64,000 nt of DNA from NCBI RefSeq assembly GCF_001677475.2, contig NZ_CP015229.1; one strand, written 5' to 3'. Position 1 is the stretch's first letter, and each line of letters begins with the position of its first letter. Of the stretch, positions 22,276-53,628 are shown piece after piece. The DNA comes from Escherichia coli. GTDB lineage: Bacteria; Pseudomonadota; Gammaproteobacteria; Enterobacterales; Enterobacteriaceae. Made by a program: the position numbers and the translations under genes. The notes under the pieces are model-generated. The model worked only from the letters and a program-made list of their open reading frames with translations, had not been told where the DNA came from and ran no database searches.

Positions 22276-23604
22276 ATGTTGATTCTGAAGAATGTCACCG
22301 CAGTGCAGTTACACCCAGCGAAAGTGCAGGAAGGCGTTGATATCGCCATCGAAAATGATGTGATTGTCGCTATCGGCGATGCCCTGACGCAACGCTACCC
22401 CGATGCCAGCTACAAAGAGATGCATGGTCGGATTGTGATGCCAGGAATTGTCTGCTCGCACAACCATTTTTACTCGGGGCTGTCCCGCGGAATTATGGCA
22501 AACATCGCCCCCTGCCCGGATTTCATCTCAACGCTGAAAAATCTCTGGTGGCGACTCGATCGCGCCCTTGATGAAGAGTCGCTCTATTACAGCGGACTGA
22601 TTTGTTCCCTGGAAGCGATTAAGAGCGGATGTACATCGGTTATCGATCACCATGCCTCTCCGGCGTATATCGACGGGTCGCTCTCCACATTGCGCAACGC
22701 ATTTTTAAAAGTTGGCCTGCGCGCGATGACCTGTTTTGAAACTACTGACCGTAACAACGGCATCAAAGAGTTGCAGGAAGGTGTAGAAGAAAACATCCGC
22801 TTCGCCCGTCAGATTGATGAGGCGAAGAAAGCAGCAACTGAGCCGTATCTGGTGGAAGCACATATCGGCGCTCACGCGCCGTTTACCGTGCCGGATGCCG
22901 GTCTGGAAATGCTGCGCGAAGCCGTAAAAGCCACTGGGCGTGGTTTACACATTCACGCTGCTGAAGATCTTTACGACGTTTCTCACAGTCACCACTGGTA
23001 CGGCAAAGATCTGCTGGCACGGCTGGCGCAATTCGATCTTATCGATAGCAAAACGCTGGTCGCCCACGGCCTGTATCTGTCGAAAGAGGATATCGCCCTG
23101 CTTAATCAGCATGACGCGTTCCTGGTACATAACGCCCGCTCCAACATGAATAACCATGTTGGTTACAACCATCATCTTAGCGATATCCGCAATCTGGCAC
23201 TGGGAACCGATGGTATCGGTTCAGACATGTTTGAAGAGATGAAATTCGCCTTCTTTAAACATCGTGACGCTGGTGGTCCGCTGTGGCCTGACAGTTTTGC
23301 CAAAGCCCTGACTAACGGCAACGAACTAATGAGTCGCAACTTTGGTGCGAAATTCGGCCTTCTGGAAGCCGGTTATAAAGCTGATTTAACCATTTGCGAT
23401 TACACCTCGCCAACGCCGTTGCTGGCGGACAATATCGCCGGGCATATCGCTTTCGGTATGGGCTCAGGCAGCGTTCACAGCGTGATGGTCAATGGTGTGA
23501 TGGTCTATGAAGACCGACAGTTTAACTTCGATTGCGATTCCATTTATGCGCAAGCCAGAAAAGCCGCTGCCAGTATGTGGCGTCGGATGGATGCGCTGGC
23601 ATAA
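22276..23604 (+). CDS. ssnA: amidohydrolase-family protein (cytosine/guanine deaminase-like)
   Basis: 442 aa; metal-dependent hydrolase HxH motif (SHNHF); 2-bp gap from ygfK. Confidence 0.88.
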   Translation: MLILKNVTAVQLHPAKVQEGVDIAIENDVIVAIGDALTQRYPDASYKEMHGRIVMPGIVCSHNHFYSGLSRGIMANIAPCPDFISTLKNLWWRLDRALDEESLYYSGLICSLEAIKSGCTSVIDHHASPAYIDGSLSTLRNAFLKVGLRAMTCFETTDRNNGIKELQEGVEENIRFARQIDEAKKAATEPYLVEAHIGAHAPFTVPDAGLEMLREAVKATGRGLHIHAAEDLYDVSHSHHWYGKDLLARLAQFDLIDSKTLVAHGLYLSKEDIALLNQHDAFLVHNARSNMNNHVGYNHHLSDIRNLALGTDGIGSDMFEEMKFAFFKHRDAGGPLWPDSFAKALTNGNELMSRNFGAKFGLLEAGYKADLTICDYTSPTPLLADNIAGHIAFGMGSGSVHSVMVNGVMVYEDRQFNFDCDSIYAQARKAAASMWRRMDALA

Positions 23605-23654
23605 ATGACAAATACCCTCTTCCCGTAGGGAAGAGGGTTAAATAAGGAAAGAAG

Positions 23655-24434
23655 ATGATTGAACAATTTTTTAGGCCCGACTCTGTCGAACAGGCGCTGG
23701 AACTGAAGCGCTGCTACCAGGATGAAGCCGTCTGGTTCGCCGGGGGCAGCAAACTCAACGCTACACCAACCCGTACCGATAAAAAGATTGCCATTTCCTT
23801 ACAGGATCTGGAACTGGACTGGGTTGACTGGGATAACGGTGCACTGCGGATTGGCGCAATGTCTCGCTTGCAGTCACTGCGTGATGCGCGATTTATTCCT
23901 GCAGCACTGCGTGAAGCCCTCGGCTTTGTCTACTCTCGCCATGTTCGTAATCAGTCGACCATTGGTGGTGAAATCGCCGCCCGGCAGGAAGAGTCTGTGC
24001 TGCTTCCCGTCCTGCTGGCACTGGATGCTGAACTGGTTTTTGGCAATGGCGAAACACTGTCAATCGAAGAGTACCTGGCCTGCCCATGCGATCGCCTGCT
24101 AACCGAAATTATCATTAAAGATCCGTATCGCACCTGTGCGACCCGCAAAATTAGCCGTTCTCAGGCAGGTTTAACCGTCGTGACGGCAGCCGTTGCAATG
24201 ACAGACCACGACGGTATGCGAATTGCGCTGGATGGCGTCGCCAGTAAAGCCCTGCGTCTGCACGATGTTGAAAAACAAAATCTGGAAGGCAATGCACTTG
24301 AACAGGCTGTCGCCAACGCCATTTTCCCGCAGGAAGATTTGCGGGGCAGCGTGGCCTATAAACGCTATATCACGGGAGTTCTGGTAGCCGACCTGTATGC
24401 CGACTGCCAACAGGCTGGGGAGGAAGCCGTATGA
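23655..24434 (+). CDS. ygfM: FAD-binding subunit of a molybdopterin dehydrogenase
   Basis: 259 aa; CO dehydrogenase flavoprotein-like (AGGSKLN). Confidence 0.85.
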   Translation: MIEQFFRPDSVEQALELKRCYQDEAVWFAGGSKLNATPTRTDKKIAISLQDLELDWVDWDNGALRIGAMSRLQSLRDARFIPAALREALGFVYSRHVRNQSTIGGEIAARQEESVLLPVLLALDAELVFGNGETLSIEEYLACPCDRLLTEIIIKDPYRTCATRKISRSQAGLTVVTAAVAMTDHDGMRIALDGVASKALRLHDVEKQNLEGNALEQAVANAIFPQEDLRGSVAYKRYITGVLVADLYADCQQAGEEAV

Positions 24435-48900: not shown

Positions 48901-48917
48901 TTGTTTTCCCCAAAAAT

Positions 48918-49106
48918 AAAGGCGCCGAAGCGCCTTTCAAATTGATGACAAAGTGCGTTTTTATGCCGGATGCGGCGTGAACGCCTTATCCAGCCTACAA
49001 GATCGTGCAAATTCAATACATTGCAGAGACCATGTAGGCCTGATAAACGAAGTGCATCAGGCAATGTTGAGTTTGTCATCAGCCTCAAAGGCGCCGAAGC
49101 GCCTTT
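48918..49106. repeat. REP/BIME-like cluster: two REP-like palindromic units flanked by two identical 20-bp hairpins AAAGGCGCCGAAGCGCCTTT
   Basis: Identical hairpin copies at 48918-48937 and 49087-49106; REP-like units around 48965-48999 (GCCGGATGCGGCGTGAACGCCTTATCC) and 49034-49062 (GTAGGCCTGATAAACGAAGTGCATCAGGC). Confidence 0.7.
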
Positions 49107-49128
49107 AGAAGATAGTCGAATCAGTAAA

Positions 49129-52002
49129 TTACTGGTATTCGCTAATCGGTACGCAGGAGCAGAACAGGTTACGGTCGCCGTAAACATCATCCAGACGTTT
49201 CACTGTTGGCCAGTATTTGTCTGCCACGCCTGCCGGGAATACTGCAACGTCACGGCTGTACGGATGCGCCCACTCGGCGACCAGTTCGCTCTGAATGTGC
49301 GGCGCGTTCACCAGCGGGTTATCTTCCAGCGGCCAGACACCAGCTTTCACCTGTTCAATTTCTGCGCGGATAGCCAGCATAGCGTCGATAAAGCGATCCA
49401 GTTCCACTTTGCTTTCAGATTCAGTCGGTTCAACCATCAGCGTACCCGCCACCGGGAACGACATCGTCGGCGCGTGGAAACCGTAGTCGATCAGGCGCTT
49501 GGCAATATCCAGCTCGCTGATGCCGGTTTCTTCTTTCAGCGGGCGAATATCGAGAATACATTCGTGCGCCACGCGACCGTCGCGACCGGTATACAGCACC
49601 GGGAAGGCATCCTGCAGGCGGCTGGCAATATAGTTGGCGTTAAGAATTGCCACCTGGCTTGCTTTTTTCAGCCCTTCTGCGCCCATCATGCGGATGTACA
49701 TCCAGCTGATTGGCAGAATGGATGCGCTACCGAACGGTGCCGCAGAAACCGCGCCCTGACGGGTTAACATGCCTTCGATTTGCACCACGCTATGACCCGG
49801 TACAAACGGTGCCAGATGCGCTTTCACACCGATCGGTCCCATACCCGGACCACCACCGCCGTGCGGAATGCAGAAAGTTTTATGCAGGTTAAGGTGCGAA
49901 ACATCCGCGCCAATAAAGCCCGGCGAAGTGATACCAACCTGAGCGTTCATGTTCGCGCCATCAAGGTAAACCTGACCACCGAACTGATGCACGACTTCAC
50001 ACACCTCACGGATCGTTTCTTCATACACGCCGTGGGTGGAAGGATAGGTCACCATGATACAGGAGAGGTTATCGCCCGCCTGTTCCGCTTTCGCGCGCAG
50101 ATCAGTCAGATCGATGTTGCCGTTTTTATCACACGCCACAACCACCACCTGCATTCCTGCCATATGTGCAGAAGCGGGGTTAGTTCCGTGCGCAGAAGCC
50201 GGGATCAGGCAGATATCGCGATGCCCTTCGTTGCGGCTTTCATGATAATGACGAATCGCCAGCAGGCCCGCATATTCGCCCTGTGCGCCAGAGTTCGGCT
50301 GCATACAAACGGCGTCGTAACCGGTCAGTTTCACCAGCCAGTCAGCCAACTGCGCAATCATCTGCTGATAACCTTCGGCCTGTTCCGGCGGGCAGAACGG
50401 GTGCAGTTCGGCAAATTCCGGCCAGGTGATTGGGATCATCTCGGCGGCGGCGTTCAGTTTCATGGTGCAGGAACCCAGCGGGATCATCGCCTGATTCAGC
50501 GCCAGATCTTTACGCTCCAGCGAGTGCATATAGCGCATCATTTCGGTTTCGCTGTGGTAGCGATTAAACACCGGATGAGTGAGGATTTCGTCGTCGCGCA
50601 GCATCGCAGGCTGAATAGAGCGGCTGTCGTGAGCCACGTCTTTGTCCAGCGTGTCGATCTCCAGCCCGTGGTTATCGCCCAGCAGCACGCTGAAAAGCTG
50701 CATCACGTTTTCACGCGTGGTGGTTTCATCAAGGGTGATCCCAACCGCGTTCAGGATATCGCTACGCAGGTTGATTTCAGCCGCTTCGGCACGCGTCAGT
50801 ACGCCCGCTTTGTCGGCCACTTCCACACACAAGGTGTCGAAATAGTGCGCATGACGCAGTTTCAGACCTTTTTGTTGCAGGCCCGCCGCCAGGATATCGG
50901 TCAGACGGTGGATGCGGTTAGCGATACGTTTCAGGCCCACCGGGCCGTGATAAACGGCATACAGGCTGGCGATGTTTGCCAGCAGTACCTGGGAAGTACA
51001 AATGTTGGAGTTCGCTTTCTCACGGCGAATATGTTGCTCGCGAGTCTGCATCGCCATGCGCAGCGCGGTATTGCCAGCTGCATCTTTCGATACACCGATA
51101 ATACGGCCCGGCATTGAGCGTTTGTATTCATCTTTCGCCGCAAAGAATGCCGCGTGTGGGCCTCCGTAGCCCATCGGCACGCCGAAACGTTGCGCCGAAC
51201 CAAAGACAATATCCGCGCCCTGTTTACCCGGCGCAGTTAACAGCACCAGCGCCATAATATCGGCGGCAACGCTGACCACGATTTTGCGTGATTTCAGTTC
51301 GCTGATAAGCGCAGTATAGTCGTGGATTTCACCGGTAGTGCCGACCTGCTGTAACAGCACGCCGAAGACGTCCTGATGATCGAGCACTTTTTGCGCGTCA
51401 TCGACAATCACTTCAAAACCAAAGGTTTCGGCACGAGTACGGACCACATCCAGCGTTTGCGGATGCACATCGGAAGCCACGAAGAAGCGGTTGGCATTTT
51501 TCAGTTTGCTGACGCGTTTCGCCATCGCCATTGCTTCGGCGGCAGCAGTGGCTTCGTCAAGAAGAGAAGCCGATGCCATATCCAGCCCGGTTAAATCCAG
51601 CGTTACCTGCTGGAAGTTGAGCAGTGCTTCAAGGCGGCCCTGGGAGACTTCAGGTTGATACGGAGTATACGCGGTATACCAGCCCGGATTTTCCAGCATG
51701 TTACGCAGGATAACCGGCGGTAACTGCACGGCGGTGTACCCCATGCCGATGTAAGACGTGAAGCGTTTATTGCGACTGGCAATAGCCTTGAGTTCTGCCA
51801 GTGCGGCGTATTCGGTCGCCGGTGCGCCAACCTGCGGCGGAGTCGCAAGCTGAATATCTTTCGGCACAATCTGGCCGGTCAGCGCGTTTAACGATTGTGC
51901 GCCAACGGCATTCAGCATTTCTTGCTGTTGCGCGGCGTCCGGTCCGATATGGCGTTCAATAAAAGCGCCGCTGTTTTCAAGCTGGCTTAACGTCTGTGTC
52001 AT
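49129..52002 (-). CDS. gcvP: glycine dehydrogenase (decarboxylating), glycine cleavage system P-protein
   Basis: Translation from [22 protein letters not shown]; supplied ORF has a 28-codon extension. Confidence 0.93.
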
Positions 52003-52040
52003 GAGCGATGGTTCCTGAAACGTGCAGTGAATTGTGAACC

Positions 52041-52110
52041 TCTCTCCTTGCGAAGAGAGTGAGGGTGAGGCGTAAAAGTTCCTCACCCTGATCCTCTCCC
52101 GCAGAAGAGG
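52041..52110 (-). other. three consecutive hairpins in the gcvH-gcvP intercistronic region
   Basis: CTCTC-n8-GAGAG (52041-52058), AGGGTGAGG-n10-CCTCACCCT (52061-52088) and TCCTCT-n8-AGAGGA (52091-52110). Confidence 0.4.
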
Positions 52111-52120
52111 AATAAAGCCG

Positions 52121-52510
52121 TTACTCGTCTTCTAACAATGCTTCGTATGCGGTCGCATCCAGCAGTGATTCCAGTTCGCTTTCATCGCTGGCTTTGATTT
52201 TGAAAATCCAGCCGCCTGCATACGGTTCGCTGTTCACCAGTTCCGGGGAATCGCTCAGTGCGTCGTTTACCGCCACGATTTCACCGCTTACTGGCGCATA
52301 AATGTCTGACGCCGCTTTTACTGATTCGGCAACCGCGCAGTCATCGCCCGCGCTAACCGTTGCGCCCACTTCCGGCAGGTCAACAAACACCATATCGCCT
52401 AACAGCTCCTGGGCATGTTCGGTGATACCAACGGTGTAAGTGCCGTCGGCTTCTTTACGCAGCCATTCGTGTTCTTTGCTGTATTTCAGTTCTGCTGGTA
52501 CGTTGCTCAT
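52121..52510 (-). CDS. gcvH: glycine cleavage system H-protein (lipoyl carrier)
   Basis: Translation [16 protein letters not shown]; lipoyl-lysine context; start taken at the second ATG of the supplied ORF. Confidence 0.92.
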
Positions 52511-52533
52511 CAATCAATCTCCAAAAAAGTAAA

Positions 52534-53628
52534 TCACGCGACGGCTTTACCGTTACGCACAAAAACAGGTTTCGTCACTTTAACCGGCATTTCACGGTTG
52601 CGAATTTGCACAATCGCTGTTTCACCAATACCTTCCGGCACGCGCGCCAGCGCAATGCTGTAACCCAGCGTCGGGGAGAAAGTACCGCTGGTGATAATGC
52701 CTTCATGCTGGTTGCCCTGCGCATCGGTAAAGCGTACCGGCAGTTCATTACGCAGCACGCCTTTTTCGGTCATCACCAGACCAACCAGTTTTTCTGTGCC
52801 ATGCTCACGCTGCACTTCCAGGGCTTCACGACCGATAAAGTCACGATCTGCCGGTTCCCAGGCGATAGTCCAGCCCATGTTGGCGGCTAACGGAGAAATG
52901 GTTTCGTCCATCTCCTGACCATAAAGATTCATACCCGCTTCCAGACGCAGCGTGTCACGCGCGCCCAGGCCGCATGGCTTAACGCCCGCTTCCACCAGCG
53001 CACGCCAGAAATCGGCCGCTTTTTCATTGGGCAGCGCAATTTCATAGCCCGCTTCACCGGTATAACCAGTGGTGGCAATAAACAGATCGCCCGCCTGCAC
53101 GCCAAAGAACGGTTTCATCCCTTCCACCGCCTGACGCTGGGCGTCATTAAACAGTGTGGCAGCTTTTGCCTGCGCATTCGGCCCTTGTACGGCAATCATG
53201 GAAAGGTCATCACGAACGGTAATTTCGATGCCGAAAGGTTCAGCGTGTTGGGTGATCCAGGAGAGGTCTTTTTCGCGGGTGGCGGAGTTAACAACGAGGC
53301 GGAAGAAATCTTCAGTAAAATAGTAGACGATGAGATCATCTATCACACCGCCAGAGGCATTCAACATCCCCGAGTAAAGGGCTTTGCCGCTTTTGGTGAG
53401 TTTCGCCACATCGTTCGCCAGCAGATAACGCAGAAACTCCCGGGTGCGGCTGCCGCGGAGATCGACGATGGTCATATGTGACACATCAAACATTCCGGCA
53501 TCGGTACGTACCGCATGATGTTCGTCGATTTGCGAACCGTAATGCAGCGGCATCATCCAGCCGTGGAAATCCACCATGCGAGCGCCGCAAAGCGTGTGTT
53601 GTTCGTACAAAGGAGTCTGTTGTGCCAT
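52534..53628 (-). CDS. gcvT: aminomethyltransferase, glycine cleavage system T-protein
   Basis: 364 aa, [33 protein letters not shown]. Confidence 0.93.

Follow-up and report, generated by a model that had tools for sequence, protein, structure and literature searches.

A very probable diverged BoxC inverted pair between gcvH and gcvP of Escherichia coli and its coincidence with a K-12 transcript 3′ end

The genes gcvT, gcvH, and gcvP of the glycine cleavage system form a minus-strand operon in the 64,000-nt stretch of Escherichia coli DNA studied here (contig NZ_CP015229.1 of assembly GCF_001677475.2), which we refer to as the window. The spacer between gcvH and gcvP folds, as RNA, into 3 adjacent hairpins, here called H1, H2, and H3 in the direction of transcription (table 1). 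We identified them, with high confidence, as 2 diverged copies, in inverted orientation, of BoxC, a dispersed repeat also known as PIT or TMECO, and noted that a strong in vivo 3′ end in strain K-12 is located just after H2. A first-pass annotation of the window had described 3 stem-loops in a 118-bp spacer, with no obvious T-tract on the coding strand, and had proposed that they could tune the expression of gcvP relative to gcvTH. The hairpins, the spacer as delimited by the gcvH stop codon and the gcvP ATG, and the missing T-tract were all recovered in our analyses. However, the tacit notion of a structure specific to the gcv operon did not hold up: because the hairpins are, in all likelihood, a degenerate BoxC pair, their structure would have been inherited from the repeat family and not built for gcv.

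The strict BoxC consensus has been given as CCCTCNCCC-N3-6-GGGNGAGGG-N3-GGGNGAGGG, with 23 strict copies in MG1655, ten of which are arranged as five closely spaced inverted pairs, and a frequent arrangement is the head-to-head pair of a type A copy (TTA loop) and a type B copy (CCG loop) (PMC4666352). The element in the window reads (CCTCTTCT gcgg GGAGAGGA tca GGGTGAGG) aacttttacg (CCTCACCC tca CTCTCTTC gcaa GGAGAGAG), where each half in parentheses is made up of one pyrimidine and two purine blocks, with a short loop after the pyrimidine block and a 3-nt loop between the purine blocks, and the 2 halves are placed head-to-head. As read from the sequence, the loops of the left half are 4 and 3 nt long and the right half is its mirror image; the element could be aligned block for block with canonical BoxC copies. 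The order of the blocks (Y-loop-R-3 nt-R, spacer, Y-3 nt-Y-loop-R) equals that of the canonical K-12 pair downstream of gcvP. The element is located wholly within the intergenic spacer and shares with the described members of the family (Bergler 1992; Hoyne & Maher 2000; PMC4666352) the intergenic position, the three-block motif, the organization as an inverted pair, and similarity at the profile level. Furthermore, other genera have canonical copies at this locus, and K-12 has a canonical pair just past gcvP.

The similarity was quantified with a pair profile (nhmmer) built from 4 K-12 head-to-head BoxC pairs at unrelated loci, namely hrpB-mrcB, fepB-entC, gcvP-ygfF, and alx-sstT. This profile matched positions 52105-52039 on the minus strand with an E-value of 3.9e-6 (22.7 bits) and covered both halves, while the mirror match on the plus strand had an E-value of 2e-4. 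No other significant match to the pair profile was obtained in the 64-kb window, where the runner-up had an E-value of about 0.1. With a profile of 23 single TMECO copies, one half was the best match in the window (E = 0.012) and the other the fourth best (E = 4.1). A BLAST search with the 80-nt element against 5,426 E. coli genomes returned only the gcv locus and no dispersed copies; for BLAST in a database of 28 Gb, the copy has diverged too far and is too short, and profile searches were therefore needed. Since only the gcv locus was found in each genome, the copy should be considered a diverged rather than a recent one.

The gcv copy also differs from canonical BoxC in several respects. 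Its blocks are 8 nt long and have decayed by C>T and G>A changes, with CCTCTTCT, GGAGAGGA, and GGGTGAGG departing from the strict consensus. Both second loops are TCA, and thus of neither type A nor type B, although the inverted pair is present. Finally, the central spacer is only 10 nt, as compared to 16 to 27 nt in the K-12 head-to-head pairs. The copy is absent from the list of 23 copies in MG1655, as is gcvH from the table of flanking genes (PMC4666352). Its recognition as a diverged BoxC pair, overlooked by catalogues that rely on the strict consensus, is new here.

Other repeats were noted in the window. The only other BoxC-like match, with E-values of about 0.1 for the pair profile and about 0.5 for the single-copy profile, was a single hairpin at 23613-23640, CCCTCTTCCC-gta-GGGAAGAGGG-tta. 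It is located in a 50-nt spacer between 2 co-directional open reading frames (ORFs) at 22276-23604 (442 amino acids) and 23655-24434 (259 amino acids), which by size and position are probably ssnA and ygfM, and it resembles half a BoxC relic in another intercistronic slot. In the spacer between gcvP and ygfF (48917-49107), a 20-nt terminator hairpin, AAAGGCGCTTCGGCGCCTTT, was present twice, at 48918-48937 and 49087-49106, and both copies were located within a 36-nt inverted repeat around 119 nt that hold REP-type sequences. At this site, K-12 contains the terminator only once and, after it, a canonical inverted pair of BoxC (TMECO 10+11), and the 3′ flank of the operon is therefore a strain-variable repeat site.

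The minimum free energy (MFE) fold of the minus-strand RNA of the spacer placed the 3 hairpins within 1 nt, at either end, of the span suggested by the first-pass annotation (52041-52110). The stem lengths proposed there, 5, 9, and 6 bp, were correct for the middle hairpin, whereas the outer 2 stems were each 8 bp long, including one G·U pair. For the whole spacer, the free energy was −44.3 kcal/mol, as compared to −30.0 ± 3.3 kcal/mol in dinucleotide shuffles (z = −4.39), and none of 200 shuffles was as good. H2 was the most stable of the 3 hairpins, and its stem is built from the innermost blocks of both BoxC halves; H1 begins 9 nt past the gcvH stop codon. In the centroid structure, H1 and H3 instead paired with each other to form one long imperfect hairpin with 29-nt arms that were 72% complementary, and H2 was common to both folds. 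The element also formed 3 hairpins when folded as single-stranded DNA (−18 kcal/mol, z = −4.35).

A consensus scan of the minus strand at 51800-52700 identified neither a sigma-70-like promoter nor a hairpin with a T-run terminator. An internal sigma-70 promoter for gcvP was rejected on the basis of this empty scan of the coding strand, as was a classical intrinsic terminator: a hairpin is present, but its tail, CACUCUCUU, is without a U-tract. A permissive Rfam scan of 51500-52700 gave matches at chance level only, namely whalefall-1 (19.8 bits; threshold 37) and mir-1759 (17.3 bits; threshold 58).

The published K-12 Term-seq data (Adams et al. 2021, PMC7815308, supplementary file 1) contain a 3′ end at MG1655 position 3,049,097 of the minus strand, which appears in the sheets of all three growth conditions. 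The end was taken as nucleotide 51 of the 61-nt Term-seq strings, which was checked on the sgrS terminator, and the coordinate was moved to the window through a gap-free alignment of the K-12 and window sequences. It is the U of ...CCUCACCCU-CACU, 4 nt beyond the last base pair of H2, in agreement with the K-12 coordinates. Transcript ends at the hairpins, which had been put forward in the first-pass annotation as a check, are thus present in K-12. With 412,219 reads in LB at an optical density (OD) of 0.4 and 171,112 reads on the second sheet, the end was classified as "orphan" because it is located 63 nt past gcvH, above the 50-nt limit for "primary" ends (PMC7815308). The terminal terminator after gcvP was represented by 36,065 reads in LB OD 0.4 (PMC7815308), and the intercistronic end thereby had about 11-fold more reads. 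The peak was already in the public table, although unannotated there. At least 4 other BoxC-type hairpins in K-12 were followed by Term-seq 3′ ends 3 to 4 nt past the hairpin (847200−, 3781065+, 3959467−, and 4231270−); the coincidence of BoxC hairpins with RNA 3′ ends at several loci is new here.

Steady-state 3′ ends just past stable stem-loops that lack a U-tract are, according to Dar & Sorek (2018, PMC6061677), shielded from PNPase and RNase II. The gcv structure resembles these protective stem-loops of Rho-dependent or processed transcripts (PMC6061677) in that a stable stem-loop without a uridine tract is immediately followed by a precise 3′ end. It differs from them in that the end is located inside an operon, and Rho dependence is unrecorded for the region in the data examined. 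No gcv gene names were found in the searched text of the bicyclomycin-defined Rho termination sites (Adams supplementary file 2), and a nearby 3′ end inside gcvP was scored as not Rho-dependent (PMC7815308). The TERMITe supplements contained no gcv entries, no paper listed by a literature search for a link to Hfq or ProQ mentioned gcvH, and a search for the stoichiometry of the gcv products yielded nothing usable.

Transcript 3′ ends were also observed farther upstream in the operon. One of these, at about 53563 (K-12 3,050,602, minus strand), is located 65 nt inside gcvT, with about 105,000 reads, and was scored as not Rho-dependent, and another, at about 53684 (K-12 3,050,723, minus strand), is located in the gcvT 5′ untranslated region, with about 80,000 reads (PMC7815308), a hint that some transcripts end prematurely near the beginning of the gcv operon.

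The element was present once in 5,425 of the 5,426 complete E. coli genomes, and all but 2 of the 5,425 matches to a 146-nt query were at least 95% identical. An alignment of 8 E. coli sequences, selected across the range of identity values, contained substitutions in 7 columns; the H2 loop accounted for five of these, and the H3 loop and the H2 stem for one each. The sole stem substitution, in strain E2348/69, changed a G-C pair in H2 to G·U, and no base pairs were lost to substitution among the 8 sequences. A rough calculation, based on 18 loop positions in the 72-nt element, gave a probability of about 0.001 for at least 6 of 7 variable sites in loops under uniform mutation. Among the sampled E. 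coli sequences, no length change exceeded 1 nt except for a 6-nt tandem duplication (CCTCAC) in the H2 3′ arm of strain TW10590, which looks like replication slippage on the repeat. The differences between K-12 and the window were limited to the H2 and H3 loops, and the stems were identical.

Across ten BoxC-bearing spacers, RNAalifold recovered the same 3 hairpins, and compensatory changes were observed in 6 of the 21 pairs, as compared to 2.5 ± 1.4 in shuffles, of which 11 out of 500 reached 6. In the ten spacers, 96% of the cells were paired, compared with 51% to 71% with slid partners. Covariation, the other check put forward in the first-pass annotation, is thus seen in stems that have stayed paired in related copies. 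The degenerate form in the window was common to E. coli, the cryptic-clade Escherichia sp. E2748, and, in more changed form, an Escherichia lineage here called L003.

In L003 (2891-3003; labelled E. coli SCPM-O-B-8794), the second loops are TTA and TAA, and thereby mutually complementary. Its inner blocks form a near-perfect palindrome of 15 to 20 bp, and in the fold prediction a single long hairpin takes the place of the three.

To place the element in a broader context, gcvH-gcvP spacers were extracted from 80 gcvH loci in species-representative genomes, and the spacers ranged from 8 to 445 nt among the recovered loci. Canonical BoxC pairs or single copies were present in Enterobacter cloacae, E. 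asburiae, Pseudocitrobacter, Buttiauxella, Pluralibacter, Siccibacter, and several other Enterobacteriaceae; in the alignment these were collinear, and in the same register, with the E. coli element. Four further genomes had retained only the ccctctccc/gggagaggg hairpin. The same slot contained REP/BIME sequences in Citrobacter, Lelliottia, Trabulsiella, and some Enterobacter, and ERIC-type elements in other Citrobacter, Kluyvera, and Salmonella. Salmonella enterica was polymorphic, with an interrupted ERIC-like element and a REP in a 287-nt spacer (L093, 1091-1377) versus REPs only in a 152-nt spacer (L094, 1091-1242), and neither of these 2 spacers contained BoxC.

Terminator-like hairpins in these spacers were scored by a scan for a perfect stem and a T-run, complemented with direct reading of the folds. 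Among more distant Enterobacterales and other Gammaproteobacteria (Photorhabdus, Providencia, Serratia, Dickeya, Pantoea, Shewanella, Idiomarina, and their relatives), most had a GC-rich hairpin followed by a T-run, which began no more than about 20 nt past the gcvH stop. Similar hairpins in Pectobacterium and Yersinia had imperfect stems and were visible only in the predicted folds. Since many relatives outside the Enterobacteriaceae have such a hairpin, it is implied that termination or attenuation inside the operon, between gcvH and gcvP, is widespread. The intrinsic terminators or attenuators of Photorhabdus, Serratia, Dickeya, Providencia, Pantoea, and others share with the E. coli element the position and a strong GC-rich hairpin, but these hairpins of other Enterobacterales are followed by a T-run, whereas the E. 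coli element is not. Because most of the relatives hold some strong hairpin here, be it BoxC, REP, ERIC, or terminator-like, the comparison suggests that structure, rather than the identity of the repeat, is what matters in the gcvH-gcvP slot. The filling of one intra-operon slot by different repeat families, or by a terminator, is new here.

On balance, we think it probable that the diverged BoxC pair acts through H2 as a protective hairpin, which defines the 3′ end and leaves gcvTH in excess over gcvTHP. According to this model, Escherichia fixed a head-to-head BoxC pair in the gcvH-gcvP spacer, where it is transcribed within the gcvTHP mRNA. Transcripts that are cut or terminated somewhere in gcvP would be trimmed by 3′ to 5′ exonucleases, which would stall at H2 and produce the 3′ end 4 nt downstream. 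Stable gcvT-gcvH RNA would then outnumber full-length gcvTHP, and, less certainly, the excess would bias synthesis toward the T and H proteins relative to P. Since H1 is located only 9 nt past the stop codon, it is probably melted by terminating ribosomes, and we speculate that this may explain why H2, and not H1, is the barrier.

By analogy, the proposed mechanism would be that of intercistronic REP elements and of the protective stem-loops of Rho-dependent transcripts. The malE-malF spacer is said to be the paradigm for mRNA stabilizers of the REP/BIME type, reportedly since the work of Newbury and Higgins in 1987. Such stabilizers are likewise dispersed palindromic repeats inside an operon that form hairpins without a U-tract and have a 3′ end at the hairpin base, with more upstream than downstream gene product as the expected outcome. 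Both features were observed here, namely a stable hairpin without a U-tract in a polycistronic transcript and, in K-12, an in vivo 3′ end at the hairpin base. In Citrobacter, Salmonella, and some Enterobacter, the very slot of the E. coli element is held by REPs, although BoxC is a separate repeat family without sequence similarity to REP. Processing, stabilization, or partial termination at the RNA level, as envisaged in the first-pass annotation, is partly supported, through the 3′ end and the covariation, whereas the gcv-specific origin it implied is not.

Several observations weigh against a protective role of a BoxC pair at this site. The strict consensus is not matched, since even the shorter pattern CCCTCNCCC N3-6 GGGNGAGGG had 0 matches in the window on both strands. 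The locus is stable across E. coli, whereas the catalogued TMECO loci are hypervariable between strains (PMC4666352), and earlier functional tests of BoxC/PIT, as summarized in the same paper, revealed neither a phenotype nor any activity as a promoter or terminator (PMC4666352). The kept pairing in a palindromic repeat can also stem from a constraint at the DNA level. Furthermore, the Term-seq data were obtained from K-12 and not from the window strain, which differs from it only in the H2 and H3 loops, and the 3′ end may belong to a short stable decay fragment rather than to the full gcvTH mRNA. It should also be noted that an exonuclease arriving from the downstream side meets H3 first and yet the end is located after H2; H3 (−12.2 kcal/mol) must therefore be passable and H2 (−15.7 kcal/mol) not.

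The most serious alternative to a protective BoxC hairpin is that the element is a neutral relic, that is, a decaying selfish or dispersed BoxC in a permissive site, whose 3′ end is an unselected by-product with no meaningful effect on gcvP versus gcvTH. We regard this as unlikely. In its favour, BoxC is without demonstrated function despite direct tests (PMC4666352), the E. coli copy has G and C tracts that have decayed in comparison with canonical ones, and the presence of unrelated REP and ERIC elements in Citrobacter and Salmonella, with polymorphism within Salmonella, is as expected of a hot spot that tolerates insertions. A neutral site does not, however, sit well with an element that is fixed in 5,425 of 5,426 E. 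coli genomes and never lost among those, with sampled substitutions that are almost confined to loops and leave the stems intact, or with a decay from the canonical sequence that preserved pairing through U-A and G·U replacements. Moreover, a hairpin is located right after gcvH in most Enterobacterales, whatever its origin. Alternatively, the 3′ end could mark transcriptional attenuation, with RNA polymerase stopping after H2 by weak intrinsic or factor-dependent termination. The absence of a U-tract, the lack of a terminator on this strand in the consensus scan, the distance of just 4 nt from the stem to the end, and the reported failure of PIT elements to act as terminators (PMC4666352) make this quite improbable, even though the end is discrete and located just past a 9-bp GC-rich hairpin, the downstream CACUCUCUU is pyrimidine-rich, and distant relatives have a classical hairpin and T-run terminator at this position. 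Nor does factor dependence gain support from the bicyclomycin data, in which no gcv name appeared in the searched text of the Rho sites and the end inside gcvP was scored as not Rho-dependent (PMC7815308).

Of much lower probability, in our view, is a role at the DNA level, as an intrastrand triplex, H-DNA, a cruciform, or a site for recombination or protein binding, as has been proposed for BoxC/TMECO. Members of the family form intrastrand triplexes in vitro, although Holder et al. saw no evidence of triplex in vivo (PMC4666352). In a hand alignment, purine-motif triplets were still compatible at 7 of 8 positions in the left half and 6 of 8 in the right half, but the G-tracts that stabilize triplexes are the very part of the gcv copy that has decayed. 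The formation of 3 hairpins by the single-stranded DNA would fit such a role, whereas the stability of the gcv locus contrasts with the reported hypervariability of TMECO loci between strains, and the RNA 3′ end would be left unexplained. We give equally little credence to cleavage by RNase III of the long imperfect hairpin formed by H1 and H3, which would part gcvTH from gcvP. The 29-nt inverted arms with 72% complementarity, the use of this pairing in the centroid structure, and the near-perfect duplex of 15 to 20 bp formed by the inner arms in L003 are in line with such a substrate. Yet the MFE fold in E. coli consists of 3 hairpins, in the long form the TCA/TCA linkers are mismatched, and gcv is unmentioned in the main text of a survey of RNase III targets.

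The names of the gcv genes were taken from the RefSeq annotation of matching E. coli genomes, and the operon structure from the RefSeq gene order and the literature. gcvT, gcvH, and gcvP were annotated in 5,425 of 5,426 complete E. coli genomes, where a 2-kb query around the spacer matched with 95% to 99% identity. An ORF of 985 amino acids with a GTG start that reaches position 52086 was interpreted as gcvP extended upstream and not as the gene itself, and the ORF list contained no small ORF within the spacer. In the spacer alignments, the last approximately 30 nt before the gcvP ATG were nearly invariant across the genera of Enterobacteriaceae, whether REP, ERIC, or BoxC was located upstream. 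It was also noted that UUCACUG pairs in the MFE fold with CAGGAA in this region (52003-52032), partly masking the likely gcvP Shine-Dalgarno sequence, and that the T>C variants of some genera would break one of these pairs near the gcvP start.

Table 1. Positions of the gcvH-gcvP element and the surrounding features in the window, with examples of hairpins followed by a T-run in other genomes (in coordinates of the respective spacer).
Feature	Position	Strand	Description
Diverged BoxC inverted pair (very probable)	52040..52111	-	Left half, 10-nt centre, right half; as RNA H1, H2, H3
Hairpin H1	52092..52111	-	52111-52104 / 52099-52092; 8 bp; loop UGCG; −12.6 kcal/mol
Hairpin H2	52062..52089	-	52089-52081 / 52070-52062; 9 bp; 10-nt variable loop; −15.7 kcal/mol
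Hairpin H3	52040..52059	-	52059-52052 / 52047-52040; 8 bp; loop GCAA; −12.2 kcal/mol
Position matching the dominant K-12 3′ end	52058	-	4 nt 3′ of H2 base; 2 nt into H3 5′ arm
gcvH-gcvP intercistronic spacer	52003..52120	-	118 nt
gcvH coding sequence	52121..52510	-	Includes TAA stop 52123-52121; ORF list and RefSeq annotation of matching E. coli genomes; product an exact match, GcvH cluster
gcvP coding sequence	49129..52002	-	Annotated ATG start, 52002-52000
gcvP translation-initiation region	52003..52032	-	ATTCACTGCACGTTTCAGGAACCATCGCTC ahead of ATG; kept across Enterobacteriaceae; outside the repeat
Hairpin and T-run, spacer L043	13-40		
Hairpin and T-run, spacer L054	8-39		
Hairpin and T-run, spacer L056	5-36		

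Both the BoxC family and hairpin-protected 3′ ends were already known. To our knowledge, however, BoxC has, since the early 1990s, lacked a known function and been studied only as a former of DNA triplexes. We tentatively suggest, while considering it rather doubtful, that BoxC may act mainly at the RNA level, as hairpins that block exonucleases and define 3′ ends in the manner of REP elements. The slot after gcvH would then be a case of convergent recruitment, in which an ancestral intrinsic attenuator that kept GcvT and GcvH above GcvP was replaced by BoxC, REP, and ERIC in different lineages, and the stems of the Escherichia BoxC would have been kept by selection while the triplex-forming G-tracts decayed.

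For the gcv operon itself, the analysis provides a concrete, very probable identity, a diverged BoxC pair, for a structure that resembles a custom regulatory RNA. If the hairpin does not set the ratio of the gene products, the element would be a repeat relic of the ordinary kind, with the Term-seq peak as a by-product. If it does, this would represent a simple control of stoichiometry inside the operon of the glycine cleavage system, which requires more H protein than P protein, and interchangeable repeat families would be seen to fill one structural role at a single site. For the repeat family, the abundant 3′ ends 3 to 4 nt past BoxC hairpins, here and at no fewer than 4 further K-12 loci, tie a repeat without known function to a measurable RNA phenotype.

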